Shown one piece after another: positions 16 through 16,423 of a stretch of 64,000 nt of DNA; the stretch's first letter is position 1; each line of letters starts with the position of its first letter. The DNA comes from a virus. The position numbers were made by a program, and so were the translations under genes. The notes under the pieces were generated by a model. It searched no databases. It had not been told where the DNA came from and saw only the letters and a program-made list of their open reading frames with translations. Where the stretch lies: IMG/VR virus record IMGVR_UViG_3300025732_000017. One strand, given 5' to 3'.

Positions 16-44
16 TTGATTTTCCCAATACACCAATATATAAT
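16..44 (+). promoter_or_regulatory. sigma70-type promoter
   Basis: TTGATT(16-21)-17bp-TATAAT(39-44); AGGAG RBS before ATG 73. Confidence 0.8.
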
Positions 45-72: not shown

Positions 73-432
73 ATGAAGACTTTTACTCGTATGGCTGCTC
101 AGGGCGATTTCGTGATCTTCCGCATCAATGAGATGCCGAAGAATGTGGAGCGCATCGAGATCAAGAACAACCATCTCACGGTTGCTCACTCTGAGACTGG
201 ACATAATCATGTCGCTGTCCTGAAGCGTCCAGAGTCCGTTGAAGCGTTCAAGGAGACTGGCACCAAGGATGTGGATCTGTACAAGATGTTCCTTCTTGTG
301 AAGGATCCGACTCCGATTGAACATCTTCGGCCACACGACACACATGAAACTCTGCTTGTTGCTCCGGGCAAGTATGAGATCCGCAGGCAGCGTGAGTACA
401 CCCCGGAGGGTTTCCGTCGCGCTCAGGACTAA
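73..432 (+). CDS. Conserved small beta-rich protein, usual partner of DUF6745 proteins
   Basis: QGD...HSETGHNH...HDTHETL..PGKYEIRRQREY..RRAQD motif pattern; RBS and promoter. Confidence 0.7.
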   Translation: MKTFTRMAAQGDFVIFRINEMPKNVERIEIKNNHLTVAHSETGHNHVAVLKRPESVEAFKETGTKDVDLYKMFLLVKDPTPIEHLRPHDTHETLLVAPGKYEIRRQREYTPEGFRRAQD

Positions 433-446
433 GCTGAGACAAACAG

Positions 447-478
447 AAAAGACGGCGCCACAAACGCCGTCTTTTTTT
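447..478 (+). terminator. Intrinsic terminator
   Basis: aaaagacggcg/cgccgtctttt stem followed by T-run. Confidence 0.85.
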
Positions 479-491
479 ATTGGTGGTATTC

Positions 492-1013
492 ATGAAGCCA
501 ATGAATGATATTATAGCGGCGCCGCGCAGCTGCGAGTGGATGTATCGGCGTGCATATCGTGCCATTTTATGGGACTTGTTTCTGGTGGACTATGTAAAGA
601 CCAGAATAATGTTAGATGTGGAACATGAGGATCTAAACCATGAAGTATAGAGTTTATACCAACGTTATTCATTCCATGTATGCTCGTCTGGATGATCAAA
701 TTGTTTCGGGATGCAGGCCTGGATTATTTGACGAGGCTGGATTGACCGTTGATATGGTAACGGTAATTGAAAAGGTACGCAGACCAGTTCTGGCCCAGAT
801 ATATTCGCAAATTGAACGCCCTGACATTTCCAATCAATCGGAAGATCAGTCATGAACGAGTCATTTGATGAAGTCTGGCAACAAGCCCGAAATCAAGTCT
901 GGAATCGTGTCATGAAACGAGTCAATGATGAGGTCTGGGGCAAAGTCTTCTGGGATGAAGTCTCGGATCAAGTCGAGGATCAAGTCTTGGATCAAGTTGA
1001 GGATCAGACATGA
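492..1013 (+). repeat. QVW mini-ORF array A: ORFs 492-650, 640-855, 852-1013
   Basis: Hand-translated; 852-1013 = MNESFDEVWQQARNQVWNRV...DQVEDQVLDQVEDQT; overlapping start/stop junctions; 492-650 only loosely related. Confidence 0.6.
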
Positions 1014-1022
1014 AATTCACCC

Positions 1023-1051
1023 TTGACATTCCCAATCTATAATTGTATCAT
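1023..1051 (+). promoter_or_regulatory. sigma70-type promoter
   Basis: TTGACA-17bp-TATCAT. Confidence 0.8.
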
Positions 1052-1082
1052 TACCTCATAGTCATCAAAGGAGATAATCGTA

Positions 1083-1955
1083 ATGGCTAAGACGAAGAAG
1101 AAGCTGGATAAGCTGACGCAGGCTCAGATTGATGCGATGCCCAAGTATGTTGAGAAGTGGGTCGCGATCGGTCTTTCCACTGAGCGTGTGGATTTTGAGA
1201 AGGTCAAGCCGCTTGTGGCCAAGTGCTACGAGAAGGCTGGATACAAGGTTCCAAACTTCCACTTTGCACAGGGTCCTGACGAGGGCTATGAGACGTATCT
1301 GGCTCTCGGTGGCAAGCCTGGGCGTTCCGAGTATACCTCGGGCTGCATGTTTGGTTCGATGGAAGCATCTTGGCTTTCCTACTACGACTACTACAAGAAC
1401 GAGACGGACATCGAGATTGACAACATTGACCACATGAAGGAGCTGGTCATGTCGTCTGGTTGGGTCTATCTCGGCGACACCGATGCGATTATCCATGATC
1501 GCCCGACGATCATTGCCCGCGACGAGCAGGGTCGTCTGCACTCGGAGACTGGTCCCGCTATTCAGTATGGTGATGGCTGGGAGCGTTTCTACTGGCACGG
1601 TAACTGCATTCCGCGCGAGTGGATCATGGAGCGTGAGAAGCTGACTGCGGAGATCGCCATCGGTCAGCAGAACGTCGAGCTGCGTCGTTGCGCGTGTGAG
1701 ATCCTTGGTTGGGCAAAGATCCTTGATAGTCTCAAGGCAACTGTGCTTGACGAGGACGAGGATCCGATGATCGGGACTCTGCTTGAGGTTGAGATTCCTG
1801 AGATTGGCAAGGAGAAGTTTCTGAAGGTTCTGTGTGGCACTGGTCGCACGTTTGCAATTCCGGTTCCTCCGGATGTGAATACTGCGCTTGAGGCCAATTC
1901 GTGGACGTATGGAATGGATCCGAAGATGCTGCGGGATCTTGAAGTTCGCACCTGA
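1083..1955 (+). CDS. DUF6745-type protein
   Basis: KWVAIGLST..., ASWLSYYDY, GRLHSETGPAIQYGDGW..YWHG, NVELRR, CGTGRTFAIPVPP..TALEA.SWTYG motifs. Confidence 0.75.
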   Translation: MAKTKKKLDKLTQAQIDAMPKYVEKWVAIGLSTERVDFEKVKPLVAKCYEKAGYKVPNFHFAQGPDEGYETYLALGGKPGRSEYTSGCMFGSMEASWLSYYDYYKNETDIEIDNIDHMKELVMSSGWVYLGDTDAIIHDRPTIIARDEQGRLHSETGPAIQYGDGWERFYWHGNCIPREWIMEREKLTAEIAIGQQNVELRRCACEILGWAKILDSLKATVLDEDEDPMIGTLLEVEIPEIGKEKFLKVLCGTGRTFAIPVPPDVNTALEANSWTYGMDPKMLRDLEVRT

Positions 1956-1959
1956 GAAA

Positions 1960-1996
1960 AGGAACGCGGTTTAGAGAAATCTGGGCCGCGTTTTAC
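1960..1996 (+). terminator. Intrinsic terminator
   Basis: aacgcgg...ccgcgtt stem with T-run. Confidence 0.65.
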
Positions 1997-1998
1997 TT

Positions 1999-2584
1999 AT
2001 GAACATAGATGACAAGTTAGGAATCAAGTCAGAAATCCACAATGAATATCGATGATCAAGTCTGTGATCAAGTCTGTGATCAAGTCTGGAATCATGCTTG
2101 GCACGGTCAAGTCTGGGATCAAGTCGAGAATCAAGTCTGGATTCAAGTCTCGAATCAAGTCTGGAATCAAGTCAAGAGTCAAGTCTTGAATCAAGTCAGG
2201 AATCAAGTCAGGAATCCACAATGAACATTGATGACCAAGTAACAAATCATGTTAGCGATAGATGCCATATTGGATCCTCCGAAGAAATTTTCAAGCAAGT
2301 CTGCTGGGATTCATACTGTATGGTCTGGAGTAAAGTTAGAATTGAAGTCGGCAATCAAGTCCAAATTCTGGATTTAGTCTATCGTTGGATTCACAATGAA
2401 CATAGATGATACTGTAATAGGTTTGATTCGCAACGATCCAAACTTTACATTCCATAAAGAATGTGATAATACAAATCAGACCGTCCTATGGGAATTTGAT
2501 AGTCAGATATGGCGTAGAATATACATTGATGTTCTGCATGTAATAATGAATGATGCAGATTTTCCAGAATTCCGCGATACATGA
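1999..2584 (+). repeat. QVW mini-ORF array B: relic at 1999, ORFs 2042-2224, 2221-2409, 2396-2584
   Basis: All begin MNIDD; 12-bp units (g/a)atcaagtcNNN; later copies progressively diverged. Confidence 0.75.
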
Positions 2585-2970
2585 AAAAGAAAGATCTTGT
2601 CATAATTGCTTGTGGCGGTCGCGATTATACAGACTCAGACTTTGTTAGTGCCACACTTTCCAAACTATCACGATTGACCACTATCATCGTCGGCGGTGCG
2701 CGTGGTGCTGATACCCTTGCAGAATATTGGGCAAATCAACAGAATTGGAAAAATAAACGACAGATAACAATCCAGAGAATTGATGCTGATTGGAAGACGC
2801 ATGGCAAAAAGGCTGGTTATATTCGCAATTCAGAAATGCTAAAGGAATTATTGAAGCATCGTGATAAGGGGAAAGATGTAGGTGTTGTTGCGTTTCCGGG
2901 TGGAACTGGAACCGAAATGATGATCAAACTTGCCAAGAAATCCGATGTGGGTGTATGGCAACCAAAGTAG
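2581..2970 (+). CDS. SLOG/YspA-like (DUF2493) protein
   Basis: IACGGRDY, GGARGAD, AGYIRNSEM, FPGGTGT motifs. Confidence 0.8.
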   Translation: MKKKDLVIIACGGRDYTDSDFVSATLSKLSRLTTIIVGGARGADTLAEYWANQQNWKNKRQITIQRIDADWKTHGKKAGYIRNSEMLKELLKHRDKGKDVGVVAFPGGTGTEMMIKLAKKSDVGVWQPK

Positions 2971-3024
2971 ACCCTTGACAATAGATTGCTGATCATCTAT
3001 GATGGGTTCATGAAAGGAAATGGC

Positions 3025-3417
3025 ATGATTCCCAAGATTGGTCAAGAAGTGACTGTGCGTGTTCGCAATTCATTGGCAACGCATCGGCATCTGTATGCTG
3101 CTGGTGTTGTCACCGAGTTTGAGACATTCACTGGTAAGGTCTGTGCTCCTGAAAAGTGGCAAGATCCCAAGCGAACGCTGAATCTTACTACAGGCATTCG
3201 GTCTTTTCCCATTCGCTCCCTCTCTCTGGATAATGTTGTCTCCATTGATGGCAAGCGACATGAAGCCAAGAAAACTGACATGACCACAAAGACCTGGACT
3301 GTGCCTGGTTCCAAGGGCAATGTGTATACGATCACCGAGGTCAATGGTCAGCGTTCATGCACCTGTGTCGGATATTCGTTCCGTCGCACCTGTAAGCACG
3401 TTATTGGAGGAAAGTAA
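3025..3417 (+). CDS. Protein with C-terminal SWIM zinc finger
   Basis: CTCVGYSFRRTCKH; start moved to 3025, downstream of promoter TTGACA(2975)-17-TATGAT. Confidence 0.7.
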   Translation: MIPKIGQEVTVRVRNSLATHRHLYAAGVVTEFETFTGKVCAPEKWQDPKRTLNLTTGIRSFPIRSLSLDNVVSIDGKRHEAKKTDMTTKTWTVPGSKGNVYTITEVNGQRSCTCVGYSFRRTCKHVIGGK

Positions 3418-3584
3418 TGTATCGCTACATTATCACGTTTGAGAAGGATGGTTATCAGCATCGTGAGTTGGCATTTGCCAGCACTGCTTTTGTTTTGGGT
3501 GAGATGCTGGCGAATGGACTATTGTCTGCGTGGAATGCGACTGTGGATGATATTCTATTTATTGAGGAGACTCCCGTATCTTGA
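3417..3584 (+). CDS. Hypothetical protein, 55 aa
   Basis: Hand-translated ORF overlapping upstream stop. Confidence 0.5.
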   Translation: MYRYIITFEKDGYQHRELAFASTAFVLGEMLANGLLSAWNATVDDILFIEETPVS

Positions 3585-3700
3585 ACATATACGATCCTAC
3601 CTAGATTCCGTACATTGCATTGCAGGTATGAGTGACTGCGTTACCATGGAAGTCAGATTTCCTCCTTGACAATTCCAGAGACACCTGTCATAGTGTGTCC

Positions 3701-3838
3701 ATGATCAAGATGAAATCCAAGACGCGCCCTGCGCGCCGTCATCCGATCTTCGCGGATCTGATGACACCTAAATACCGAAAGCGAATTGTGCCTTCCAAGA
3801 AGGTCTATTCGCGCAAGCGCCAGAAGATGGAGAACTGA
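3701..3838 (+). CDS. Small basic protein, ArfA-like
   Basis: HPIFADLMTPKYRKRIVPSKKVYSRKR resembles the ArfA core; ATG lies near the predicted +1 (possibly leaderless). Confidence 0.5.
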   Translation: MIKMKSKTRPARRHPIFADLMTPKYRKRIVPSKKVYSRKRQKMEN

Positions 3839-4005
3839 TGAAGAACTATGATTCCAAATTTCTGTGTGTCGGTGTCGGTGGACGCTATTGCGTCTGCTGC
3901 TTTGACCCACCTGGATCCAAGGCACGCCGACTGGAATACCGTCGTGCCAAGCGCGCCGCCAAGCGCGAGGCCATGAAGGTCGAGGAAATGAACCTCGAGG
4001 ACTAA
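3838..4005 (+). CDS. Hypothetical basic protein, 55 aa
   Basis: Hand-translated; stop codon is the TAA of the repeat at 4003. Confidence 0.6.
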   Translation: MKNYDSKFLCVGVGGRYCVCCFDPPGSKARRLEYRRAKRAAKREAMKVEEMNLED

Positions 4006-4087
4006 GTCCTTGATCCTACTGGGCAATTTTAGCCCTTGACAATTCCCTAAGGATGTGTCATAGTGTGTTCATAATCAAACTGACCAC

Positions 4088-4429
4088 ATGATGAAGGAGA
4101 CAAAGATGCAGGACTGGAAAATGCCCACCGAGATGCCCGCCCACGACATGGACATTGCGCTGACGATGTTCGCCGATCACCTGATCGGCATCGCGCCGTA
4201 CAGCAAGCCCAATGTCACCTTTGAGCGTGGATCCAAGTTCATGCGCGTGGTGAAGTCGGATGGTTCTTCGCGATCCGCCTATGCGTTCATCGTCATGTTT
4301 GACCATGATCGGTGGATGGTTGGTGACATTCTGAAGCCCGCGTCGTGGAAGGCGCCTGCCAAGAACTTCAGTCGCGGTAATGTGCTGAATCCGAAGTCCT
4401 ATCAGAACTTCAGCTACTACGGCCTGTGA
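4088..4429 (+). CDS. Conserved phage protein, paralog of 17193-17537
   Basis: FERGSKFMRVV...SAYAFI...GDILKPASWKAPAKN..RGNV. Confidence 0.75.
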   Translation: MMKETKMQDWKMPTEMPAHDMDIALTMFADHLIGIAPYSKPNVTFERGSKFMRVVKSDGSSRSAYAFIVMFDHDRWMVGDILKPASWKAPAKNFSRGNVLNPKSYQNFSYYGL

Positions 4430-4440
4430 GGAGATAAATC

Positions 4441-4692
4441 ATGTCCAACTTTGATCTGTCGCTGTTTGTCTGGAACAAGGACAGAAAGAGCCTGGTGATG
4501 AATAATTTCACCCATGCCTTTCCACAGGAGTTTATGGTGCGTTCGCATCACACTGGCAAGGAAGTGCGGTTTTGCCGTGTGGAGCACTTTGACGTTCTAT
4601 ATGACCAGGATCAATGGGATGGTGAGCAGATGGTGTATCGCCCGGTTGGCACAGTTGCCAATGTGGAATATGCTGCACTCTGTCGCGGATGA
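4441..4692 (+). CDS. Hypothetical protein
   Basis: ORF with GAGGAG RBS. Confidence 0.6.
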   Translation: MSNFDLSLFVWNKDRKSLVMNNFTHAFPQEFMVRSHHTGKEVRFCRVEHFDVLYDQDQWDGEQMVYRPVGTVANVEYAALCRG

Positions 4693-4697
4693 GGATC

Positions 4698-4886
4698 ATG
4701 TCCATCTATTACCGAATTGAGGAAACTGTTGGCGCACACTACATCGTGTGGAATAATATGTTCACAACGATGGAAAGTGCTGTGGAGTATATTGATCAGC
4801 ACTCAGAAAATCTGAGGGATCGTCTTCACGTGGCTGCATATGATTCCAATGGTTGGTCGCCTGTTCGAATGGGAGTTGTTTACTAA
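4698..4886 (+). CDS. Hypothetical protein
   Basis: ORF with GAGGA RBS. Confidence 0.55.
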   Translation: MSIYYRIEETVGAHYIVWNNMFTTMESAVEYIDQHSENLRDRLHVAAYDSNGWSPVRMGVVY

Positions 4887-4949
4887 TGACCCTTGACAAA
4901 GGGTTGGGCACCTGTCATAGTGTAGAAGATGAATCGCAAGGAGTTGGAA

Positions 4950-5276
4950 ATGTCGCATACCGGTTTCACCGTTGAGGTTTACATCCGCGATGCCAGGATT
5001 CGTGGCAAGATGACTCGTGGACGCATTGACTGGCTTTCCAAGAACTTCCTTGGTTTTCGTTTCCTTGAGGCCATGGATTTTCAGGTTGCTTCCGAGAAGG
5101 AAGCTGAGCAGCTGGCCAAGCAGGCGCACAAGCATCGTGGGCTTGACAAGCTGCACTTCAAGGTGCATCAGATCTATGTGACGCGCCAGAATGCGATGAC
5201 GGGCAAAGATTACCAGGAGAGGTATGACACGCCGACCTGGTGCTCGCCTTCGTCGGAGTCATACTGGTCCATGTGA
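4950..5276 (+). CDS. Conserved phage hypothetical protein
   Basis: AAGGAG RBS; C-terminal DTP..CSPSSESYWSM motif. Confidence 0.65.
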   Translation: MSHTGFTVEVYIRDARIRGKMTRGRIDWLSKNFLGFRFLEAMDFQVASEKEAEQLAKQAHKHRGLDKLHFKVHQIYVTRQNAMTGKDYQERYDTPTWCSPSSESYWSM

Positions 5277-5284
5277 GGAATCCA

Positions 5285-5479
5285 ATGTCTAATATGTCAT
5301 ACTGTCGTTTCCAGAACACAGAGAAGGATCTGCGAGATTGTCTGAATGCAATGCGTAAAGCATCCAGCATTTTTGACATGGATCTATCGAATGATGAATA
5401 TGAGGCATTCCAGGAAATGACCTCGCTTATTTTACACTTTAGCATTGAAGCTGATAGGCTTCAGAAGGATGATGTATGA
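5285..5479 (+). CDS. Conserved phage hypothetical protein
   Basis: MSNMSYCRFQNT..DL.DC N-terminus; RBS. Confidence 0.65.
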   Translation: MSNMSYCRFQNTEKDLRDCLNAMRKASSIFDMDLSNDEYEAFQEMTSLILHFSIEADRLQKDDV

Positions 5480-5844
5480 TGGCCAATCCAATCTTGGATA
5501 AGATATCCAAGCTGAATGCGGAGATTGAACAGCTTCGCGCAGAGAATAGTCATCTGCGCCGTGTGGGCATGGATAGGCCTTCTGCCGAACTACATGAGGC
5601 GGCGATGGCGGAACTGCGCGCCGAAAACGAGCGCCTCCGCTCTGAGGTGGAGGAACAGGCGCGCCTGCTGGGCATGGGCAGCGAGCGCGAAGCGAGGTTG
5701 CGCGCTCGCGTCGAGGTGCTGAGCGCAGCAATTGTTCTTATGGCGTCGCTGGCACCGAAAATGACAATCGACACCAGCGACCCACAAGGCGTGGCGCGGG
5801 ATTTCGTGGAAATTGCGCGCGCCACTCTGGAGGCCAAGCCATGA
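5476..5844 (+). CDS. Coiled-coil hypothetical protein
   Basis: LRAEN heptads; ATGA coupling. Confidence 0.6.
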   Translation: MMANPILDKISKLNAEIEQLRAENSHLRRVGMDRPSAELHEAAMAELRAENERLRSEVEEQARLLGMGSEREARLRARVEVLSAAIVLMASLAPKMTIDTSDPQGVARDFVEIARATLEAKP

Positions 5845-6125
5845 CCAAGCAATATGAATCCAGTTCCAGTTATGCACAACTGAATGCCGATATTACCGCA
5901 GTAAAGAAAGACAAAATCATCGCAGATCTTATAGCTGAAAACACCGATCTTCGTACCCGCGGTACGATATTAGAAGAGGCAGTTCGGTTTTACGCGGACG
6001 TTCACACATGGAAGTCTGCATCGGTCTTCATGTGTGGCCATGACGGAAACTCTAGGGCTACGATTGATCGCGGAGAAAAGGCTCGCGGAGCCCTAAGATC
6101 CTTGGGAAAGCCTTCGGCAAAATAA
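5841..6125 (+). CDS. Hypothetical protein
   Basis: ATGA-coupled ORF. Confidence 0.55.
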   Translation: MTKQYESSSSYAQLNADITAVKKDKIIADLIAENTDLRTRGTILEEAVRFYADVHTWKSASVFMCGHDGNSRATIDRGEKARGALRSLGKPSAK

Positions 6126-6187
6126 GCCCTTGACATTGCCCAAGACCTAGTCTATACTGTGTTCATAGATCAACAAGGAGAACCCAA

Positions 6188-6634
6188 ATGGCGTTCATGA
6201 ACCAGACGATCAAGTCCGAGCTGCTTCCCGGTATCAAGGCCGTGCTCCGCAAGTATGGCCTCAAGGGTACCGTCTCCGTTGGAAACCACACCGCGCTTTC
6301 CGTCACGATCCGCGAAGGCAAGCTGGATTTCATCGGTGACGCCATCTCCGTGCTGCGCTCGCCACAGAATGCCAATATCCCCTTCCTGTCGGATTCTATC
6401 GCATCCCTCCTGAAGGAACAGTCGCTGGATGTCAATACGTACCACATCCGTTCCAACCACTCCGGCATCTGCCAAAAGGCTCTGCTGGAGCTGCACCAGG
6501 CCATGAACGATGGTAATTGGGACAAGTCCGACCCACAGACCGACTATTTCAACGTGGGCTGGTATACCTACATCAATATCGGAAAGTGGCGCAAGCCCTA
6601 CCGCTGCACCGCTCAGATGCCAAAGGTGGCATAA
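6188..6634 (+). CDS. Conserved phage protein, paralog of 10560-11021
   Basis: MAFM.Q..K..L.PGIKAVLRKYGLKG...DPQTDYFNVGWY in both. Confidence 0.8.
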   Translation: MAFMNQTIKSELLPGIKAVLRKYGLKGTVSVGNHTALSVTIREGKLDFIGDAISVLRSPQNANIPFLSDSIASLLKEQSLDVNTYHIRSNHSGICQKALLELHQAMNDGNWDKSDPQTDYFNVGWYTYINIGKWRKPYRCTAQMPKVA

Positions 6635-6637
6635 ACG

Positions 6638-6781
6638 ATGACTGAAACGTTCGGCGCCTTTCTAATGATCGTGACCTATCTTATCGGATTGGTCACGGGT
6701 TATATCATATGGGCGCCTATGTCCAATTTCAAAAGAGGATTCGTGGACGGAATCACCCTCAGATTTATTTGGAAACGATGA
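6638..6781 (+). CDS. Small membrane protein, 47 aa
   Basis: Hand-translated; hydrophobic N-terminal helix. Confidence 0.5.
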   Translation: MTETFGAFLMIVTYLIGLVTGYIIWAPMSNFKRGFVDGITLRFIWKR

Positions 6782-6846
6782 AAATCCGTCCTTGACATTG
6801 CCCAAGATCTAGTCTATACTGGATTCATACTTAGGGAGATCCTATC

Positions 6847-7341
6847 GTGTTCCAGGTTTTCGTCGGCTCCAAAAGCCAAGCCCGCAACCTCGTCCGCATC
6901 CATAATGCGACGCATTGGATCTCCCTGCTCGACCACGACGATACCCATCCACAGATGGATCGTCAGGATCATGTGCTCCGCCTCCTGCTGAATTGCGACG
7001 ATCAGCTAAAGGTCACGGATCCACACGCACCAACCCGCAACCAAGTCCAGCAGATCCTGGATTTCACCCGCAACCTCACCGATGCAACCATCGTCGTGAA
7101 CTGCTTTGCTGGTGTGGCCAGATCTACCGCGGCTGCGCTGGCCATTCTCGTCCAGCACCATGGATCCATAGATCACGCTATAAACCTGCTCCGCGCAGAT
7201 CGCCCCCAGGCCATGCCAAATCCAGTCATCAGCCAGTTCGCTGACGATATTCTAGGCCTCGATGGAAAGCTTTTCGCAGCCTCCGAGAAGGTGGCACAGA
7301 GCCGTGTTCTGGAGATAATTGACGATATGGACAATTCGTGA
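6847..7341 (+). CDS. Protein tyrosine/dual-specificity phosphatase-like protein
   Basis: CX5R loop NCFAGVARSTAAA; own promoter and RBS. Confidence 0.8.
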   Translation: MFQVFVGSKSQARNLVRIHNATHWISLLDHDDTHPQMDRQDHVLRLLLNCDDQLKVTDPHAPTRNQVQQILDFTRNLTDATIVVNCFAGVARSTAAALAILVQHHGSIDHAINLLRADRPQAMPNPVISQFADDILGLDGKLFAASEKVAQSRVLEIIDDMDNS

Positions 7342-7351
7342 GAAACCCACA

Positions 7352-7668
7352 ATGAACATCGATGACCAAGTCTGGAATCAAGTCTGGAATCAAATCTATG
7401 ATCAACTCTTGAATCAAGTCAGGAATCAAGTCTATGATCAAGTCGAGGATCAAGTCAGGAATCAAGTCAGGAATCAAGTCTGGACTCAAGCCAGGAATCC
7501 ACAATGAACATCGATGACCAAGTCTACAATCAAGTCTGGGATCAAGTCTGGGATCAAGTCTGGAATCAAGTCTGGCTTCAAGTCTCGATTCGAGCCTGGG
7601 ACCAGGTTCGGAATCAATATCTTCAAGATGCCAATTCCAGGGCGCCAGAGAACACGGACTCCGCCTAA
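7352..7668 (+). repeat. QVW mini-ORF array C: ORFs 7352-7507 and 7504-7668
   Basis: MNIDDQVWNQVWNQ... and MNIDDQVYNQVWDQVWDQ...; ATGA coupling. Confidence 0.75.
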
Positions 7669-7752
7669 GTCATTGATTCGACTCGGTAATTTCGAGGCTT
7701 GACAAGGCACAGTTTTTGCCCTACACTCAGTCCATAAAACCAAAACAAGGAA

Positions 7753-8022
7753 ATGGCAATGTTTATCTATGAAGTCACTAGATCCACGTGGGGTAGTTCT
7801 GGTAACGACGATCAGCCATTTGGCCTCTATGAATCCAAGGATATAGCTGATAAGCTGGCTAAGTCTCTTATGGAGGTTGATTTTCCTGTTACGGTTACCA
7901 TTACACAGCATGAAGTCTTTAGTGAGCCTAAGGTAAACGGAGAATGGAGCGGCAGAAAGAAGTGGCGATATGAAAACGAACACTGGATTCGCTGGGATAA
8001 ATTCTATGGTCACCGAGAATAA
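7753..8022 (+). CDS. Hypothetical protein
   Basis: Cassette ORF; stop is the TAA of the next repeat. Confidence 0.65.
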   Translation: MAMFIYEVTRSTWGSSGNDDQPFGLYESKDIADKLAKSLMEVDFPVTVTITQHEVFSEPKVNGEWSGRKKWRYENEHWIRWDKFYGHRE

Positions 8023-8105
8023 TCCATTGATTCGACTGGGTAATTCTTGCCCTTGACAAAAGGCCCGATCTAGGTTATTCTGTGACTCTGAGAAAGGAGA
8101 TGGTC

Positions 8106-8480
8106 ATGAATCTGAAGGTTCGGCAGCTGGAAACCGCATTGCTCTTTGACAGGCCGACGCCTGTTCCTGAGGGCTTTCGTCTGATCGGCCGAGATGGCTT
8201 TTATTGTCGCGGTGAAGAGGTCTGGTGGGAATACAAGGGCAAGGGCTATCTCTATGGCCAAAGCCTGAATTGCCGCGAGGATTTTGAGTACAGGCTGCGA
8301 GTGAATGATGAGGCCATCCTCATCCCACGCGAGGTGGCGGCCATGAAGACTATTCTGAAGACGACGCGGGATGCCAATGTTCGCAAGGCATTGTCGGCGC
8401 GCCTTCGCCTTCATGAGGAGGCCTATGAACTGCGCCGTATCCGTCGTGGTGTTCGTCGTGTCATGGGACCCGTTGATTGA
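8106..8480 (+). CDS. Hypothetical protein
   Basis: Cassette ORF with AAGGAG RBS. Confidence 0.65.
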   Translation: MNLKVRQLETALLFDRPTPVPEGFRLIGRDGFYCRGEEVWWEYKGKGYLYGQSLNCREDFEYRLRVNDEAILIPREVAAMKTILKTTRDANVRKALSARLRLHEEAYELRRIRRGVRRVMGPVD

Positions 8481-8601
8481 TGGCTAATTCCAGCCCTGAA
8501 GATGCCAATAATCCAGGAAAGATGCCAATTTCGTAACGTATGACGCAAAAGATGCCAATTCCAGGGCGTCAGAGAACACACAGAGACACAGGGAAACGAT
8601 A

Positions 8602-8857
8602 TATGCGCTATACAAAAGCTGACATTCCGCGGCGACCAGGTCGCAATTGGCACAAACGACGCATCATCGGCGGCATATGGATGGCAGAACAGCGATGGTA
8701 CCAAACGCCTGCGCTGCGCACCAGAGAGCGAATGGAGGACCTACAGCACCTCGCCGGACAGCCCAGGCGACGCCAGATGCCAAGGATCCTGCTATCGACG
8801 CTGCTCTGGCACGCCGCCGAGAACCGAAAAAGCCGCCTGAGGCGCCTAAGCCATTGA
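8602..8857 (+). CDS. Arg-rich hypothetical protein (start uncertain)
   Basis: Part of ORF 8540-8857; weak RBS. Confidence 0.3.
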
Positions 8858-8932
8858 TTCCATTAGGTAATTCCAGCCCTTGACAAGGCGCCTGATCTAG
8901 CATATTCTGTGACTCTGATTGCGGAGGTATCA

Positions 8933-9154
8933 ATGTCTCAGACGTTCTACACGGTCCATGTTCCTGACGGCGACGACCCTGGTCTGGGTAATTGGAAGCT
9001 GAGCACGGCCAGCCTGGCTATCGCCTTTGCACAGGATCTCGGCGTCAGGTGTGAGGTCCGAGTCCATGATGGCGACAAGATTCCCATGCGTCTATGCACT
9101 GTTCTCCCTGGGACCTTCGATGGCCATCCTAATCTTATCTGGCCCTATCCGTGA
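8933..9154 (+). CDS. Hypothetical protein
   Basis: Cassette ORF with GGAGG RBS. Confidence 0.6.
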   Translation: MSQTFYTVHVPDGDDPGLGNWKLSTASLAIAFAQDLGVRCEVRVHDGDKIPMRLCTVLPGTFDGHPNLIWPYP

Positions 9155-9259
9155 CGTGGACTTCTAACCCATTGATCTGATTGGGCAATTCCAGCCCTTG
9201 ACAAGGCGCCTGATCTAGCATATTCTGTGACTCTGATTGCGGAAGAGGAAAGGAAACCG

Positions 9260-10159
9260 ATGGCTACCATGAACCACACGGTCAGCTTTGACCGGGCTTG
9301 CGGCAAGTATGTCGCCATGTGCGATGGCAAGGTTGTCACCAAGACCAAGTCGCTGAACCGTGCGAAGCGCCTGCTCCGTATGCACCTCGACGGCCTCCGT
9401 GAGGTTGCCAAGGCTGAGGTTGATGCGGGTCTCAATTTCTCGGTGGCTGATCGGTTCACCTTTCTCGAGGCCCTGACCACGATGGTCGCGAACGGCACCT
9501 CGCCGTCGGCTATTGTCACGGGTGAGGGTGGTATCGGCAAGACGCACACCGTCACCAAGACCCTCGCCTCCATGGGCTTTGTCAATTGCATGGAGATCCC
9601 CGAGGGCGTGTCGGTGCCAACTCGCAAGACCTACACCATGGTCAAGGGCTACTCCACGCCCTATGCGCTGTACCGTACGCTGTGCGAGAATGCCGACCGC
9701 ATCGTGGTGTTCGATGACTGCGACAGCATCCTCAAGGACCCGACGGCCATCAACCTGCTCAAGGCGGCGCTCGACAGCTACTCCAAGCGTATCGTCTGCT
9801 GGCAGTCCGAGGTCAAGGGCTCCGACCTGCCCACGTCCTTCGTGTTCAATGGTGGGGTGATCTTCATCTCCAACTACACGCTGGGCACGCTGGATCAGGC
9901 CGTGCGTACCCGTGCGCTGTGCGTGGATCTGAGCATGACGGCCGACCAGAAGCTGGAGCGCATGGAGCAGATCCTGCGCGAGCCGGATTATCGCACCGAC
10001 GTGTCGCTATCCATGAAGCTGGAGGCGCTGGGTGCGATCCGCGAGAACCTGTCGAAGGTCAAGAACCTGTCGCTCCGTACGCTGAAGCAGGTGATCGACG
10101 TTCGCAAGGGCAACCGCAAGGACTGGGCCAAGCTGGCTCTGTATGTGATGTCCCAGTAA
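9260..10159 (+). CDS. AAA+ ATPase
   Basis: Walker A GEGGIGKT, Walker B IVVFDDCD, sensor FISN, Arg finger RTR. Confidence 0.85.
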   Translation: MATMNHTVSFDRACGKYVAMCDGKVVTKTKSLNRAKRLLRMHLDGLREVAKAEVDAGLNFSVADRFTFLEALTTMVANGTSPSAIVTGEGGIGKTHTVTKTLASMGFVNCMEIPEGVSVPTRKTYTMVKGYSTPYALYRTLCENADRIVVFDDCDSILKDPTAINLLKAALDSYSKRIVCWQSEVKGSDLPTSFVFNGGVIFISNYTLGTLDQAVRTRALCVDLSMTADQKLERMEQILREPDYRTDVSLSMKLEALGAIRENLSKVKNLSLRTLKQVIDVRKGNRKDWAKLALYVMSQ

Positions 10160-10259
10160 CCCCTTGATCTGACACGGTAATTCCAGGGGTTGACAAAGTA
10201 CCAATCCCTGGATATACTGGTACCAAGATTGGAAAACAGGATTCGGGAAAGGAATCTTC

Positions 10260-10442
10260 ATGCTCATTGGAATTTTGAACTACGCTACCTCTTTCATGTT
10301 GGCCTTTGCCGCCGCGTGCTGGAATCGGGGAGGCTGGGCTAATGCGTTGATCATTAGTGCGCTTCTCCTGTTGTCCTTGTTCAATCTAATCCTCGGGGCC
10401 ATGCACTACCCCGGACTCCTGGTGTTGCCGCCAAAACTGTGA
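10260..10442 (+). CDS. Small two-TM membrane protein
   Basis: Two hydrophobic segments; follows cassette promoter. Confidence 0.6.
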   Translation: MLIGILNYATSFMLAFAAACWNRGGWANALIISALLLLSLFNLILGAMHYPGLLVLPPKL

Positions 10443-10559
10443 GAGGCTAACCGAAGGCACTCATACCTAACCACTTGATCTGACACGGTAATTCCAGGGG
10501 TTGACAAAGTACCAATCCCTGGATATACTGGTATCAAGATTGGAAAACAGGAGAAACGA

Positions 10560-11021
10560 ATGGCGTTCATGGATCAGAAGCGGAAGGCGCAGCTCGCGCC
10601 TGGTATCAAGGCGGTGCTTCGGAAGTACGGCCTCAAGGGTTCGCTGAGGGTGGGCAACCACACCTCGCTGAGCCTGACCCTGACCGAGGGTTCGCTGGAC
10701 CTCATCGGTAATGGGGTGGCTGTGCTCCATCGTGAGGCTGACACCTACCCGCATGATATCAAGGGCAAGTGGATGCGTGAGGCGGCTGCCTACATGCAGA
10801 AGACCCAGTCCACGGATGTCAACACCTACCATGCGAAGGATGCGTTCACGGGCGTCTGCCAGAAGGCGATCCTGGAGCTGATCGCGGCGATGAATGTGGG
10901 CAACCACGACGAGTCCGATCCTCAGACTGACTACTTCAATGTCGGCTGGTACATCCATGTGAACGTCGGTCGGTGGAACAAGCCCTACCGGTTCACCGGC
11001 GCCAATCGGAAGGTGGCCTGA
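10560..11021 (+). CDS. Conserved phage protein, paralog of 6188-6634
   Basis: Shared N- and C-terminal motifs. Confidence 0.8.
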   Translation: MAFMDQKRKAQLAPGIKAVLRKYGLKGSLRVGNHTSLSLTLTEGSLDLIGNGVAVLHREADTYPHDIKGKWMREAAAYMQKTQSTDVNTYHAKDAFTGVCQKAILELIAAMNVGNHDESDPQTDYFNVGWYIHVNVGRWNKPYRFTGANRKVA

Positions 11022-11023
11022 TC

Positions 11024-11206
11024 ATGACGCGCAAGCAGCGATTGGAGCAGGCCCTATCCCATCTTGGGAAGGTGGAGGATCTTCTGAATCCCAAGGGTGT
11101 CGTGCCTGGACCGGACATGCTCCTCACCTCCCTGGAGAGGACCATTGAGGAGGTGGAATACCAGCTGGCTATGCTGGAGATGGCGGAAAGTGCCAACCAG
11201 GAGTAA
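11024..11206 (+). CDS. Hypothetical protein
   Basis: ORF; stop is the TAA of the repeat at 11204. Confidence 0.6.
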   Translation: MTRKQRLEQALSHLGKVEDLLNPKGVVPGPDMLLTSLERTIEEVEYQLAMLEMAESANQE

Positions 11207-11296
11207 CTGGTTGATTCCACTCACAAATTTCCACCCTTGACTAGGGTGCCAATACCAAGTATTCTGTGAACATACTGAAAGACAAAGGAGATACCA

Positions 11297-12052
11297 ATGC
11301 GTAACTATGAAATGGTTCTTATGGCCCTGAAGTCGGGCGAGACCAAGACGGCTACGGACCTCAAGGCGGAGCTGCCGGGTCTGGAGTGGTGGAACATGCA
11401 CAAGTATGTGGCGCGTGCCAAGTACCTGGCAGGTGCTGAGATTGAGCTGATGAAGGCTGGCAAGCCGCTCAAGGCTGCCCGTGCGCGGGATGCTGAGACT
11501 CTGCGCCTGGTGAATGCCGACAAGTTCAAGGCCTGGTCGCCTGTCACCAAGACTGGTGGTCCGCTGTTCCGCAAGGCCAACCCGAAGGCCAAGACCCAGA
11601 AGGCCAAGGTGAAGGCTGCGAAGCCTCCGAAGCCTGCGAAGCCGACCAAGACCAAGATCCCTCCGGCGATCCAGGCGAAGCTGAATGCCCAGCATGCCAA
11701 GTCCAACTCGCTGATCGCCGCTGCGATGGCGAAGGATCCGTGGCTCGGTCGTCGTGGCCGTGTCACCCAGGAGGCTACCAATCTGGTCAATCCGGTGGCG
11801 CCGCCCGATCAGCCCGGTCATGGTGAGCTGAAGGGTGCCAATGTCGTGGATATGATCAAGGCTGAGCTGGCTGCGACTGCGCCGGCGAAGGGTACCAAGA
11901 AGGCTGCTGCTCTTCCGCGTGGTCCGAAGGCGACGCCTGCGCCTGCTCCGGTCAAGGTCGAGCGGGTGTCGGATGTGGTGACTCCGCTGTCGGATGATCC
12001 GCTGGACATTCCGGACTTCCTCCGTATCAAGTCCACCAAGACGGAGGAGTGA
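11297..12052 (+). CDS. Lys/Ala/Pro-rich basic protein, H1-like tail
   Basis: KAKTQKAKVKAAKPPKPAKPTKTK; strong RBS and promoter. Confidence 0.7.
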   Translation: MRNYEMVLMALKSGETKTATDLKAELPGLEWWNMHKYVARAKYLAGAEIELMKAGKPLKAARARDAETLRLVNADKFKAWSPVTKTGGPLFRKANPKAKTQKAKVKAAKPPKPAKPTKTKIPPAIQAKLNAQHAKSNSLIAAAMAKDPWLGRRGRVTQEATNLVNPVAPPDQPGHGELKGANVVDMIKAELAATAPAKGTKKAAALPRGPKATPAPAPVKVERVSDVVTPLSDDPLDIPDFLRIKSTKTEE

Positions 12053-12055
12053 GGA

Positions 12056-12205
12056 GGCGCCCAGCACAACCCTGGGCTAGCGTGCTTCCGCGCGAATAAA
12101 GCAGGTGGTTCCTGCAGGAAGGCAAGTCTGCTCGGCGTAGGAGCGACGGTGGGATGGGCACCGCAGGTTAGCCGGACAAAGGGATCGGACTAACCACCCA
12201 TCACC
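12056..12205 (+). ncRNA. Candidate structured RNA
   Basis: Consecutive hairpins plus a long interrupted stem (ggtg/gatggg/ggttag vs ctaacc/cccatc/acc). Confidence 0.4.
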
Positions 12206-12296
12206 TAAGCCCTTGATCTGATTGGGCAATTCCAGCCTTGACAAAGTACCAATTCTCGCCTATACTGGTACCAAGATCGGAAAGAGGAGAGCAGAG

Positions 12297-12518
12297 ATGG
12301 TTCGCAAGTATACCAACATGGTTCTGGAGATGGTTGAAGAGGGCATCCTGGACAAGGATGTGGTCATCATGGCCTGCCTGAAGTACATGTCGGAGGCTGA
12401 GGTCCGTGACATGGCCGAGGCGAACGGGTTCGTCCCCGAGGATGAGGAGGAGGAGATTCGGTCCGACTATGAGGCCAATCGCACCTATGAGCGAGTGCGA
12501 GTGGTGGCTGGGCAGTAA
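12297..12518 (+). CDS. Hypothetical protein
   Basis: Cassette ORF; start corrected to follow the RBS. Confidence 0.65.
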   Translation: MVRKYTNMVLEMVEEGILDKDVVIMACLKYMSEAEVRDMAEANGFVPEDEEEEIRSDYEANRTYERVRVVAGQ

Positions 12519-12607
12519 GCCCTTGATCTGATTGGGCAATTCCAGGGCTTGACAGAGCGTCAATTCTCGCCTATACTGAGTTCATGATCAAGCAAAGGGA
12601 GACGGTG

Positions 12608-12853
12608 ATGCAGACGTTCCGTGTTGATATCGACCTCGACGGCGATAGCACTATTGGCGAGTTCCTGGAGACTCTCGCGGAGTATCGCGGCTCGGCGCAA
12701 ATTGTGTCCTATGACGCGGCTCCCGACGCTGGCGGTTGCCCGACGATGGTGCTGGAATTCACGTCCTATGAGGTTGCGCTGGAGTTCGCCATGGAATGGT
12801 TCGGCGAGTCGTTTGAGGATGCCAAGGAGTACGTGGAGACGATTACGGTGTAA
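12608..12853 (+). CDS. Acidic protein, paralog of 16858-17109
   Basis: MQTFRV.IDLD...YDA.PDAGG...EFTSYE...EYVETITV. Confidence 0.75.
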   Translation: MQTFRVDIDLDGDSTIGEFLETLAEYRGSAQIVSYDAAPDAGGCPTMVLEFTSYEVALEFAMEWFGESFEDAKEYVETITV

Positions 12854-12941
12854 CCCCTTGACCTGACAAGGCTTTTCCAGGGCCTTGACAGCGCCCTGGT
12901 TTCGCCCTATACTGGTACCAAGATCGGAAAGGGAAACAGAG

Positions 12942-13115
12942 ATGACCAAGACCAAGACCCCGACCAGGAAGCCCCGCAAGCCCACCATCCTCTCTTCCTG
13001 GGAATGGTCACAGTATCATCAGCAGATGATCGAGTACCTCGAGGAGAAGCTGGAGCGCAGGGAGCAGAAGATCGCGCAGCTGGAACGCCAGATCGAGCGC
13101 CTGCAGGGTAAGTAA
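12942..13115 (+). CDS. Small coiled-coil protein
   Basis: Cassette ORF; basic N-terminus. Confidence 0.6.
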   Translation: MTKTKTPTRKPRKPTILSSWEWSQYHQQMIEYLEEKLERREQKIAQLERQIERLQGK

Positions 13116-13200
13116 CCCATTGATCTGACACGGCTTTTCCAGGGCTTGACAGAAGCCTGATCCAGCCCTATACTGGTACCAAGATCGGAAAGGGAAACAG

Positions 13201-13941
13201 ATGCAGACGAACCTCCTCACTCGCGGCAACCCCAAGGTCCTGAAGGGCGAGAGCCAGGGCTACCTGACCTTCATCCTTCACCTGGCGCCGGCGTCGCTGT
13301 CGGGCTACAACACCTGCGCCGCGGCGACTGATGGCTGCAAGCTGGCGTGTCTGAACACCGCTGGTCGTGGTGGCATTCCCAATGCTCGCCCCGTGACCGT
13401 GCAGGCTCGCAATGGTGCCATGACGGTGTCCAACGTGATCCAGGCGGCTCGCATCCGCAAGACCGTGTGGTTCTTCCAGGACCGCGTCGGCTTCATGGCT
13501 CAGCTGGTCAAGGAAATCCGTGCGGGCATCCGCTATGCTCAGAAGATGGGCCTGATCCCCGTGTTCCGTCTGAATGGCACCTCCGATCTGCGCTGGGAGA
13601 GTGTCGGTGTGGATGGTGCGCGCAATGTCATGGAGCTGTTCCCGGACGTGCAGTTCTATGATTACACCAAGCTGTCCAATCGCAGGGACCTGCCTGCCAA
13701 CTACAAGCTGACCTTCTCCCTGGCGGAGAATAACGACCTCCAGGCGTGGGCTGCTGCTTCGGCTGGTCTGAACGTCGCTGCGGTGTTCCGTGGCAAGCTG
13801 CCCGCGACCTTCATGGGTCGCACGGTGATCAATGGTGATGACTCGGATCTGCGTTTCCTTGATCCGGTGGGTGTGGTGGTTGGTCTGAAGGCGAAGGGCA
13901 AGGCGAAGCGGGACACGACGGGCTTTGTGAGGGCTGCCTAA
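13201..13941 (+). CDS. GP88-family protein (radical-SAM-like Cys motif)
   Basis: NTC.....GC...C, RLNGTSD, FYDYTK, DLRFLDP motifs. Confidence 0.75.
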   Translation: MQTNLLTRGNPKVLKGESQGYLTFILHLAPASLSGYNTCAAATDGCKLACLNTAGRGGIPNARPVTVQARNGAMTVSNVIQAARIRKTVWFFQDRVGFMAQLVKEIRAGIRYAQKMGLIPVFRLNGTSDLRWESVGVDGARNVMELFPDVQFYDYTKLSNRRDLPANYKLTFSLAENNDLQAWAAASAGLNVAAVFRGKLPATFMGRTVINGDDSDLRFLDPVGVVVGLKAKGKAKRDTTGFVRAA

Positions 13942-14029
13942 GCCATTGATCTGATTGGGCAATTCCAGCCTTGACAGAGCACCAGTTTCGCCCTATACTG
14001 GTACCAAGATCGGAAACAAGGAGACAGCG

Positions 14030-14263
14030 ATGGCCAAGTCCAAGACCAAGTCCAAGACCAAGTCCAAGACCAAGTCCAAGACCAAGGTCTATGTCGTGCT
14101 GAATGAGTCGAAATGGCCCACGACGGTTGTGGGTGTGTTCAGTACGCGCGGCCTCGCCATGGCAGGCGCCAAGAAGGAGCGCCAGAAATGGCCGAACATC
14201 GGGATTCTTCGGATTTCCCATCACATGGTTGATAATCCCGAATGGTACGTGGGAAAGCCTTGA
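14030..14263 (+). CDS. Basic protein with KSKT repeats
   Basis: aagtccaagacc x4 perfect copies at 14036-14083. Confidence 0.65.
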   Translation: MAKSKTKSKTKSKTKSKTKVYVVLNESKWPTTVVGVFSTRGLAMAGAKKERQKWPNIGILRISHHMVDNPEWYVGKP

Positions 14264-14345
14264 TCTGACACAGCTTTTCCAGGGCCTTGACAGAGCACCA
14301 GTTTCGCCCTATACTGGTACCATGATCGGAAACAAGGAGACAGCG

Positions 14346-14603
14346 ATGACCAAGATCCGCTTCACGGCCCCCTCCCCTCGCGCCGACCGCATCCACGGCC
14401 TGACCAAGATGGGTCGCGCCATCGTGGACTACTTCGCGGCTCGCCCGGGTCAGGTGATCTCCCGCACCACGGTGGAGCTGCACCTCGCCTCGCGTGGCTT
14501 CAAGCGCCCCGCGGTCACCGCGACGGTCTGCTCGGATCTGGCCCACTCGGGTCATCTGAAGCCGATGCCGTTCGGCATGTACCAGTTCCGCGCTGCGGCC
14601 TAA
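14346..14603 (+). CDS. Possible winged-helix protein
   Basis: Cassette ORF; helix-turn-helix-like layout. Confidence 0.5.
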   Translation: MTKIRFTAPSPRADRIHGLTKMGRAIVDYFAARPGQVISRTTVELHLASRGFKRPAVTATVCSDLAHSGHLKPMPFGMYQFRAAA

Positions 14604-14617
14604 GGAAAGGATTGATC

Positions 14618-14728
14618 ATGCATACCATCACGTTCCTCGCTCAGTCGCTGGCTCTGGCTGGTGTTCTGTTCGCCGCTGGCGTCGGCCTGGTCGCGCTGAT
14701 CGGGTTCTTCGCTGATCGCAACCGCTAA
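14618..14728 (+). CDS. Single-TM micropeptide, 36 aa
   Basis: MHTITFLAQSLALAGVLFAAGVGLVALIGFFADRNR; AAGGA RBS. Confidence 0.55.
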   Translation: MHTITFLAQSLALAGVLFAAGVGLVALIGFFADRNR

Positions 14729-14739
14729 GGAGCAAGACC

Positions 14740-15021
14740 ATGTTTAGGATCACCGAAGGCAGGGGTTTTCAGATGACGTTCGCAAACGGATGGACGGTCT
14801 CTGTCCAATGGGGTGCTGGCAATTACTGTCCGAACCACCACGTCCTTCCGTCTGGTAAGTCGGAGAGGGCTTATGAAGATATGCAGCGTAAGCTGGGCGA
14901 GGAGGGCGTGCTTGTCGCGGAGGCAGGCTGGTGGAAGGGCTCCGGTGACGTGGAGGTTAGTGGTTTCATGACGCCCGACCAGGTTCTGGCCCTCATGGTC
15001 GAGCTGGCAGCTAGGGAGTAA
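14740..15021 (+). CDS. Conserved phage hypothetical protein
   Basis: GFQMTFANGWTVSVQWG..NYC motif; RBS. Confidence 0.65.
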   Translation: MFRITEGRGFQMTFANGWTVSVQWGAGNYCPNHHVLPSGKSERAYEDMQRKLGEEGVLVAEAGWWKGSGDVEVSGFMTPDQVLALMVELAARE

Positions 15022-15025
15022 GACC

Positions 15026-15115
15026 GTGGTCTGCATTTCCGTGGACACGCTGGCTCTGTTCGCATTTGGTATCAGTCTGGTCGTGCTGGCTCGACTGATC
15101 ACCCGCAACCGCTAA
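15026..15115 (+). CDS. Single-TM micropeptide, 29 aa
   Basis: GTG start, GGAG RBS, ends RNR like 14618. Confidence 0.5.
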   Translation: MVCISVDTLALFAFGISLVVLARLITRNR

Positions 15116-15125
15116 GGAGATGCAC

Positions 15126-15221
15126 ATGGATTGCCTTCAGCCGCTAGTTTTCTTTCTGACCTACGCTGCGGTGCTCGGCATCGCCGTGTGGGTTGTAATC
15201 GCCATCCGTAATGAGGAGTAA
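15126..15221 (+). CDS. Single-TM micropeptide, 31 aa
   Basis: AAGGAG RBS; hydrophobic core. Confidence 0.55.
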   Translation: MDCLQPLVFFLTYAAVLGIAVWVVIAIRNEE

Positions 15222-15225
15222 GATC

Positions 15226-15423
15226 ATGACAATGGATTCCAGGGAGCTGGCGAAGGCGCTGGCTGAGAAGGCGAAGGCTGCTTCCATTCCCTATTCGGAG
15301 TATGAGGCGAAGGTGGACTATCCGTTCGCCCTGGGCTATCTGACAGGCACCGTGCAGGATCTTCTGCTCCGCCTGTCGCCAGGCCAGCGCGAGACTATTG
15401 CGAAGCAGTACGGTATCAGCTGA
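15226..15423 (+). CDS. Hypothetical protein
   Basis: GAGGAG RBS. Confidence 0.6.
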   Translation: MTMDSRELAKALAEKAKAASIPYSEYEAKVDYPFALGYLTGTVQDLLLRLSPGQRETIAKQYGIS

Positions 15424-15433
15424 GGAGACAGAG

Positions 15434-15664: not shown

Positions 15665-15775
15665 CTCGCCGGCTCCGACCGCTAACCCCTTGATCTGACA
15701 CGGTAATTCCAGCCTTGACATAGGCCTGATCCCACCCTATACTGAGTACATAAGGTGGAAACAAGGAGACGACAG

Positions 15776-16404: not shown

Positions 16405-16423
16405 ACGGAACAAGGAGACAGAG

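Follow-up and report, generated by a model that had tools for sequence, protein, structure and literature searches.

What becomes of a repeat-bearing protein when the repeat is no longer part of its gene? The question is raised by a locus in the virus record IMGVR_UViG_3300025732_000017, in which a gene of the DUF6745 family lacks the tetrapeptide tract carried by many of its relatives and is flanked by arrays of small open reading frames (ORFs) that encode a repeat of the same type. We analysed a stretch of 64,000 nucleotides, hereafter the window, which corresponds to bases 66,436-130,435 of the complete 196,948-bp record and from whose first base all positions below are counted. The initial annotation had suggested that the variable module of DUF6745 was externalised into many small genes, which could act as exchangeable specificity subunits, as decoys or as a recombination reservoir. 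Our computational analysis supports the externalisation: the homologues carry the tract at the site that had been claimed, free arrays go with repeat-less DUF6745 genes, and an interaction between the two kinds of product is predicted. The evidence for the split reading is good in evolutionary and architectural terms, and a controlled structural model lends it support in physical ones.

The DUF6745 protein of this phage lacks the tract of its relatives

The gene at 1083-1955, in which a DUF6745-type product had been recognised, matches Pfam family PF20530 with 102.2 bits against a gathering cut-off of 27 (E 3e-29, residues 89-282), and a genome-wide search (102.5 bits) indicates that it is the sole copy in the 196,948-bp record. 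Its product features an N-terminal helical ..KW..IGLS.. part followed by a G.(H/M)(D/E)A.WL.(F/Y)YD(F/Y) helix; across the DUF6745 alignment, W26 and G30 are invariant, and A95, W97, L98 and Y101 are nearly so. As the annotation had stated, no tetrapeptide tract is found in this 290-residue protein, nor is one found in its close relatives of 281-296 residues. The position of the tract is occupied by ..YETYLALGGKPGRSEYTSGCMF.., and the stretch that had been cited in support of the claim (..QGPDEGYETYLALGGKPGRSEYTSGCMFGSMEASW..) is present and free of repeats.

We located the tract in other proteins by searching with the small ORFs themselves. The 60-residue ORF downstream of DUF6745 matched 11 longer proteins, eight of which are annotated as PF20530 and ten of which match a DUF6745 profile built from 120 repeat-less homologues. 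A profile of 20 such ORFs matched 2,965 of 1.84 billion representative proteins at E <= 1e-3, and DUF6745 accounted for 143 of the 149 best matches. In alignment A3, the tract always lies after the short helix that follows 'SP' and before the G.HDA.WL.FYDF helix, which bears out the claim that many homologues carry it between the N-terminal helices and the GxxxAxW helix; mapping this position had been set in advance as a test. Judged from these searches and the alignment, the Q-V tract is nearly specific to DUF6745 and maps to a single loop.

Most relatives carry the tract, which within that surface loop takes the form [D/N/G/S]-[Q/S/A]-[V/L/A]-[W/R/G/E/Y..], comprises 12 to 70 repeats, is hypervariable and is predicted to fold as a helical hairpin. 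Other lineages feature xxQL, SSLx, xSQL, xxSV, TxAA or xATx units at the same spot, encoded by very different DNA. Because these lineages use different units and codons, what is conserved at the level of sequence is the peptide pattern (small or polar residue, Q/S/A, V/L/A, variable residue) rather than a DNA word. Conservation of the DNA was considered and rejected: the SSL tract of MW202476 seemed to be QVW in another frame, but the DNA units of MW202476 (AGCAGCCTCNNG) and of Mycobacterium (GRCCAGCTCNGG) both differ from that of the window (GATCAAGTCTGG).

Searches for a known fold or function of DUF6745 were negative. When the predicted structure described below was compared with the PDB, Foldseek gave E values of 0.22 or more at best and VIA-align gave Z scores of at most 4.4, the latter for the C-terminal beta part only. 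The ESM Atlas and BFVD searches returned DUF6745 entries alone, PDB sequence and profile searches with DUF6745, the small His-rich partner described in the next section and the small ORFs returned no matches, and neither PADLOC nor NCBIfam gave a match. The literature that was searched contains no mention of DUF6745, PF20530 or the repeat strings. Among the ESM Atlas entries is a cyanobacterial cluster of 62 proteins that combines DUF6745 with leucine-rich repeats (LRR_4 in 89%, LRR_8 in 81%), which hints that another type of repeat can attach to the DUF6745 core.

A small His-rich partner accompanies DUF6745

The 119-residue product of 73-432, which the annotation had called the usual small partner of DUF6745, matches phrog_27831, and the description as usual proved apt. 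DUF6745 has a homologue of the partner next to it in 74 of 80 viral loci and in 29 of 31 loci from bacterial genomes and metagenome-assembled genomes (MAGs), and in 66 of the 80 viral loci the distance is at most 700 bp. The motifs AAQGD, HSETGH.H and H.R..DTH are invariant in the partner, and residues H39, E41, H44, H46, H84, D89 and H91 are invariant across 18 distant homologues (alignment A4). This pattern of His, Asp and Glu residues suggests a metal site. The partner has no match in Pfam, against which its alignment was searched, and none in the PDB, and the ESM Atlas returned unnamed viral clusters only.

Repeat-encoding mini-genes lie on both sides of DUF6745

The small ORFs, hereafter mini-genes, number about 16 in the window and fall into four clusters, two of which adjoin DUF6745. 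The features of the locus and of the two distant clusters, the latter absent from the initial annotation, are as follows.

16-44, plus strand: sigma-70-like promoter before the partner gene, TTGATT-17-TATAAT (consensus match only)
73-432, plus strand: gene for the 119-residue His-rich partner protein, phrog_27831 (phrog match and synteny)
445-478, plus strand: intrinsic terminator hairpin, then U7 (-18.6 kcal/mol, z -7.15)
492-855, plus strand: two small overlapping ORFs (492-650 and 640-855) leading to the upstream QVW ORF
852-1013, plus strand: QVW-type mini-gene of 53 residues, with an ATGA overlap with the preceding ORF
1023-1051, plus strand: near-consensus sigma-70 promoter of the DUF6745 gene, TTGACA-17-TATCAT
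1083-1955, plus strand: gene for the repeat-less DUF6745 protein, 290 residues (Pfam match)
1961-1994, plus strand: terminator hairpin after DUF6745 (-21.5 kcal/mol, z -5.99)
1999-2041, plus strand: collapsed remnant of a unit, with an MNIDD start and then ..QVRNQVRNPQ* one base out of frame
2042-2224, plus strand: QVW mini-gene of 60 residues with about 12 repeats, the chain used for the complex model
2221-2584, plus strand: two degenerate siblings (2221-2409 and 2396-2584) with a preserved MNIDD start and about 62 residues each
7352-7668, plus strand: third cluster, two QVW mini-genes (7352-7507 and 7504-7668) in another promoter cassette
19220-20460, plus strand: fourth cluster, eight chained mini-genes with ATGA/GTGA overlaps and MNSVK/MKSVK starts, the last two degenerate

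The annotation had placed QVW arrays on both sides of DUF6745, each directly after a terminator, and this layout holds. TRF reports 12-bp arrays at 949-1006 and 2055-2216, and each flank contains one clear QVW ORF (852-1013 upstream and 2042-2224 downstream), composed of (D/N)-Q-V-(W/R/E/S..) units from a 12-bp repeat whose unit in the window is GATCAAGTCTGG. These ORFs belong to the chains 492-650, 640-855, 852-1013 and 2042-2224, 2221-2409, 2396-2584, each of which follows a hairpin (z about -7.2 and -6.0); none of 200 shuffles folded as well as either hairpin. In the upstream siblings 492-650 and 640-855 the repeat has mostly decayed, leaving remnants such as DDQIV and LAQIYSQIE, and we infer that these ORFs are members of the same family. 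All clear repeat ORFs of the genome fall within 852-20126 of the window; the criterion used to define them gave no hits in the rest of the 197-kb genome.

Four observations say that the mini-genes are, as far as sequence can tell, genes. Upstream of the ATG or GTG of each ORF, at a distance of about 8 nt, stands an AGGA- or GGAG-like element, and the stop codon of the ORF overlaps the next start (ATGA/GTGA). Consecutive ORFs shift frame, and each still reads Q-V. Similar ORFs recur elsewhere: x-x-Q-V ORFs of 40-90 codons with their own ribosome site and 4-nt overlaps are found beside a repeat-less DUF6745 in the window, in loci L002-L005, L097, L098 and L100 and in many others, and MKSVK/MNSV starts, lengths of about 60 residues and KARTEP or RNPQ ends are shared by numerous phages, although their DUF6745 proteins show no more than 40-64% identity to that of the window. 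Finally, copies that have diverged from the repeat retain open frames of 54-71 codons and the family start motif. With a mini-gene as query, tblastn gave no matches with its low-complexity filter in force, and a search for proteins of similar length gave one weak match among 11 candidates, which says little because the word index and the gene callers miss ORFs of this kind.

Two observations concern the mini-genes more loosely. In loci L097 and L098, which come from different samples and encode the same DUF6745 protein, orthologous mini-genes differ by W versus R at the variable slot (..SFQVWNQVEDQP versus ..SFQVRNQVEDQP). In the window, the last downstream mini-gene is ATGA-coupled to a gene at 2581-2970 for a SLOG/YspA-type protein (PF10686, E 9e-13; phrog_289).

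Free arrays go with repeat-less DUF6745 genes

We examined whether repeat-less DUF6745 and free mini-genes co-occur in two sets of loci. The first set comprised 80 viral loci chosen by DUF6745 similarity alone, 78 of which are repeat-less. Free mini-genes are found in the locus for 56 of these 78 and within 1.5 kb for 50; among the repeat-less loci with at least 2 kb on both sides, the count is 25 of 43. The second set was chosen by a (DQVW)-type DNA pattern. It contains about 40 loci with the tract inside DUF6745, none of which has free mini-genes. The remaining loci have free mini-genes, about 20 of them with a repeat-less DUF6745 on the same piece, and most of the others are small fragments; for two near-complete records with arrays whose fetched piece lacks DUF6745 (G017 and G019), the gene is present elsewhere in the record. 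Among bacterial genomes and MAGs, where contigs were searched with a profile of alignment A1, most of the 31 DUF6745 genes carry a tract. When the loci are pooled, free arrays lie near 44 of 61 repeat-less DUF6745 genes versus 0 of 32 tract-bearing ones, which matches the co-occurrence that had been predicted.

A FastTree phylogeny of the DUF6745 core, with the tract columns removed and a midpoint root, places tract forms on the deep branches. The repeat-less forms comprise one clade of 56 rows (support 90) and three or four small groups, among which L175, L165 and L156 also have arrays. With the midpoint root as its only anchor, the repeat-less state looks derived. The arrays themselves turn over rapidly. 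The five contigs L131-L135 share 100% identical DUF6745 DNA, yet the interval from DUF6745 to the partner contains 1, 2, 2, 2 and 3 mini-genes, respectively; where there is only one, it is the first mini-gene joined cleanly and in register to the second. Unequal recombination thus alters the arrays at a faster pace than point substitutions build up in the neighbouring DNA.

A structural model predicts that a mini-protein docks on DUF6745

AlphaFold2 modelled the DUF6745 protein with 72 homologues at a pLDDT of 92 and a pTM of 0.80. In the model of a fused homologue (P0130), the tract forms two long helices (59-93 and 98-123), a hairpin that leaves and re-enters the body of the protein. We then considered the complex of DUF6745 with the mini-protein encoded by 2042-2224, each supplied with its own alignment. 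Three runs gave ipSAE scores of 0.80, 0.57 and 0.81, and the best of three controls scored 0.01; an interaction is thus predicted. The ipSAE mark used is reached by 58 of 80 solved complexes and by 2 of 110 mismatched pairs, and it is a rough guide here because custom alignments were used. The runs shared at least 33% of their contacts, and the mini-protein chain had a pLDDT of at least 71.

The predicted interface is built from the fixed part of the repeat. Q or V residues of the repeat (V36, Q39, V40, Q43, V44, V48, Q51 and Q55) contribute to 24 of the 25 tightest pairs. Their contacts on DUF6745 fall in residues 19-31 (including W26, G30 and L31), in the WL.YYDY helix (residues 93-103) and at L152, and the mini-protein helix lies antiparallel to 93-103, the orientation to be expected of the final helix of a built-in tract. 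Variable fourth residues hardly occur among the tightest contacts, which suggests that in the model they point outward. Taken together, these predictions support binding of the mini-protein to DUF6745.

Weighing the proposed explanation

Based on these results, we propose that the locus represents a split version of an accessory module, widespread in phages and prophages, that consists of DUF6745 and the small His-rich partner. In one clade of large T4-like phages, to which this one belongs, the DUF6745 gene appears to have lost the tract, and the repeat is supplied by a tandem series of translationally coupled genes, each 40-70 codons long. Each mini-protein would form a helix with its invariant Q-V stripe set between the KW..IGLS helix and the WL.(F/Y)YD(F/Y) helix of DUF6745, a groove that appears to be the place where the end of a built-in tract is expected to pack. 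One scaffold could thereby be loaded with any of about 16 alternative, fast-changing surfaces, each displaying its fourth residues. Among the roles that the annotation had listed for the small genes, exchangeable subunits fit best. We consider the chance about even that translated mini-proteins dock on DUF6745 as exchangeable modules. A fuller version, in which an invariant scaffold of DUF6745 and a possibly metal-binding partner carries one of many diversifying helical cartridges whose Q-V face plugs in and whose W/R/G/E face reads targets, would amount to combinatorial recognition and is doubtful at present. If it were true, a single phage could have many specificities in parallel, for example towards a range of host defence proteins, and unequal recombination could supply new ones.

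Several points weigh against this proposal. The association between arrays and repeat-less genes comes mostly from one large clade, and only three phylogenetically independent contrasts between tract loss and free arrays are available (p 0.5). No fold, defence-family or NCBIfam match points to a function. The tract of the fused homologue is modelled at low confidence (pLDDT 54-75), and the docking model may owe part of its result to intramolecular packing in fused relatives.

Further points are those expected if the mini-proteins descend from the DUF6745 tract but act alone, as self-assembling helices, decoys or binders of other targets, so that their position marks a birthplace only. Two of the four clusters (7352-7668 and 19220-20460) are in other transcription units, 5 and 17 kb from DUF6745, and 17 of the 61 repeat-less DUF6745 genes have no array in the fetched flanks. 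Conserved columns are not significantly overrepresented at the modelled interface (odds ratio 1.6, p 0.30). In addition, the Q-V tract is a portable module, because it is also found in a second, unrelated family of phage proteins and in an ORF that is almost all repeat. Members of the second family (L065:3206-4015, L067:5350-6144, L083:11500-12291, L085:233-1165 and P0131) combine the same x-x-Q-V tract with an N-domain of about 150 residues and the C-terminus ..SYWA.K..HP.FD..LG..GK.GK.LGEYD, and they come from records without PF20530. The ORF, at L016:4283-4945 on the minus strand, encodes 220 residues, almost all x-N/D-Q-V repeats, in an 80-kb phage record that is 92% complete and has no DUF6745 match. 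An independent role is less easily reconciled with the predicted docking (0.80 versus 0.01 for the best control), which places the invariant Q-V face at the interface, with the lack of free arrays beside all 32 tract-bearing genes, or with the fact that arrays usually abut DUF6745 or its partner, even in the small clades (L175, L165 and L156). We regard action of the mini-proteins on their own as somewhat unlikely, with a real chance of being right.

The arrays could also be an expanding 12-bp minisatellite that serves as a recombination hot-spot or protein-binding array, in which case the small ORFs would be incidental and untranslated. CAA GTC is the codon pair for Q-V in some 95% of units at nearly all T4-like loci (the window, L002, L004, L113, L131, L140 and others), despite the divergence of neighbouring genes, although the L144 ORFs use CAG GTC instead. 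This uniformity fits concerted evolution, and it leaves room for a constraint on the DNA, which counts against our proposal. Copy number varies while the DUF6745 DNA remains identical, several frames of the repeat are open, and the unit at 1999-2041 has collapsed. In contrast, every unit features an AGGA-type site, an ATG or GTG and a stop that overlaps the next start, the ORFs change frame yet each reads Q-V, loss of the repeat has not closed the frames of diverged copies, which still span 54-71 codons and begin with the family start motif, and distant lineages keep the tract's peptide pattern on quite different DNA units. Incidental ORFs are an improbable explanation. That the mini-genes are silent cassettes that recombine into DUF6745 to alter its tract, in the manner of pilS cassettes or orphan toxin modules, is very improbable: the arrays are numerous, variable, next to the DUF6745 gene and visibly subject to unequal recombination among themselves, but nothing in the resident DUF6745 gene offers them a 12-bp repeat as a target, each cassette comes with a ribosome site and a start codon, and the whole clade of 54 repeat-less genes has remained without a repeat. 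The missing target and the ribosome sites speak against the recombination reservoir that the annotation had also listed.

Taken together, docking of the mini-proteins on a repeat-less DUF6745 is the reading we prefer. DUF6745 and its partner are among the commoner unstudied accessory modules of phages and prophages, and the split form offers a clean experimental handle, since scaffold and repeat are separate small proteins that can be independently expressed, mixed and mutated. The model makes a sharp prediction, namely that the Q-V stripe would bind and the fourth residue would be displayed.

Genomic setting of the locus

The window contains T4-type baseplate genes (tail tube cap, hub/lysozyme and wedge subunits), and the phage is a large T4-like phage. 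The first 20 kb of the window comprise short plus-strand cassettes of early type with near-consensus sigma-70 promoters. One of these contains the third mini-gene cluster and, directly upstream of it, a gene at 6847-7341 for a 164-residue protein with a CFAGVARS motif (Cys-X5-Arg, phosphatase-like), which has no significant family match. At 16539-16751 lies an 18/36-bp tandem array of about 11.6 copies that is unrelated to the QVW repeat. A megablast search of the region against GenBank phages gave no match.

Comparison with known systems

By descent, the closest comparison is with the tract-bearing DUF6745 proteins (PF20530 / phrog_31813), which include prophiGD102-1 gp38 of a Mycobacterium prophage, UOF77368 of MW202476 and a protein of Microcystis phage LMM01. 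They share with the locus described here the N-terminal helices, the G.HDA.WL.FYDF helix, the C-terminal core, the adjoining His-rich partner and the peptide pattern of the repeat. Unlike them, the window protein is free of the tract, and the repeat is encoded by about 16 separate mini-genes.

In this respect, the locus resembles Rosetta-stone pairs, in which many genomes have a module fused to its companion and others encode it as a neighbouring gene of its own, a classical hint that the products interact. The locus differs from such pairs in that the detached part is a tandem family with fast turnover, which ranges from 1 to 27 copies per locus.

For function, the closest analogy is the tunable counter-defence protein gp54 of mycobacteriophage Tweety, considered here with Che8 gp57 and PMC gp51, and it is an analogy by likeness only. 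The gp54 protein contains 40-48 tetrapeptide repeats (A-A-x-x) between unique ends, and escape mutants that overcome the Phrann gp29/gp30 defence differ in repeat number only (PMC9262239, PMC2884959). The likeness lies in a 12-bp in-frame repeat in which two residues are fixed and two vary, in unique parts at both ends of the protein and in a readily changing repeat number, which in gp54 determines the activity against this prophage defence. Repeats and unique domains share one polypeptide in gp54, as they do in fused DUF6745 relatives, whereas in this phage they are encoded by separate genes; the gp54 repeat is in cis, and neither a partner gene nor a mini-gene array has been described for gp54. 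The two proteins are unrelated, as gp54 has no Pfam family and hhalign against the DUF6745 profile gives a probability of 0.15%. Because the design is the same and the families are not, the comparison speaks to how the module may work rather than to its family. By this analogy, we infer that the complex could recognise proteins of the host or of rival phages early in infection, for example as a tunable counter-defence like that of gp54. If the analogy holds, the arrays would amount to a naturally occurring collection of counter-defence specificities, and they would represent protein diversification through tandem micro-genes rather than through diversity-generating retroelements or cassette shuffling.

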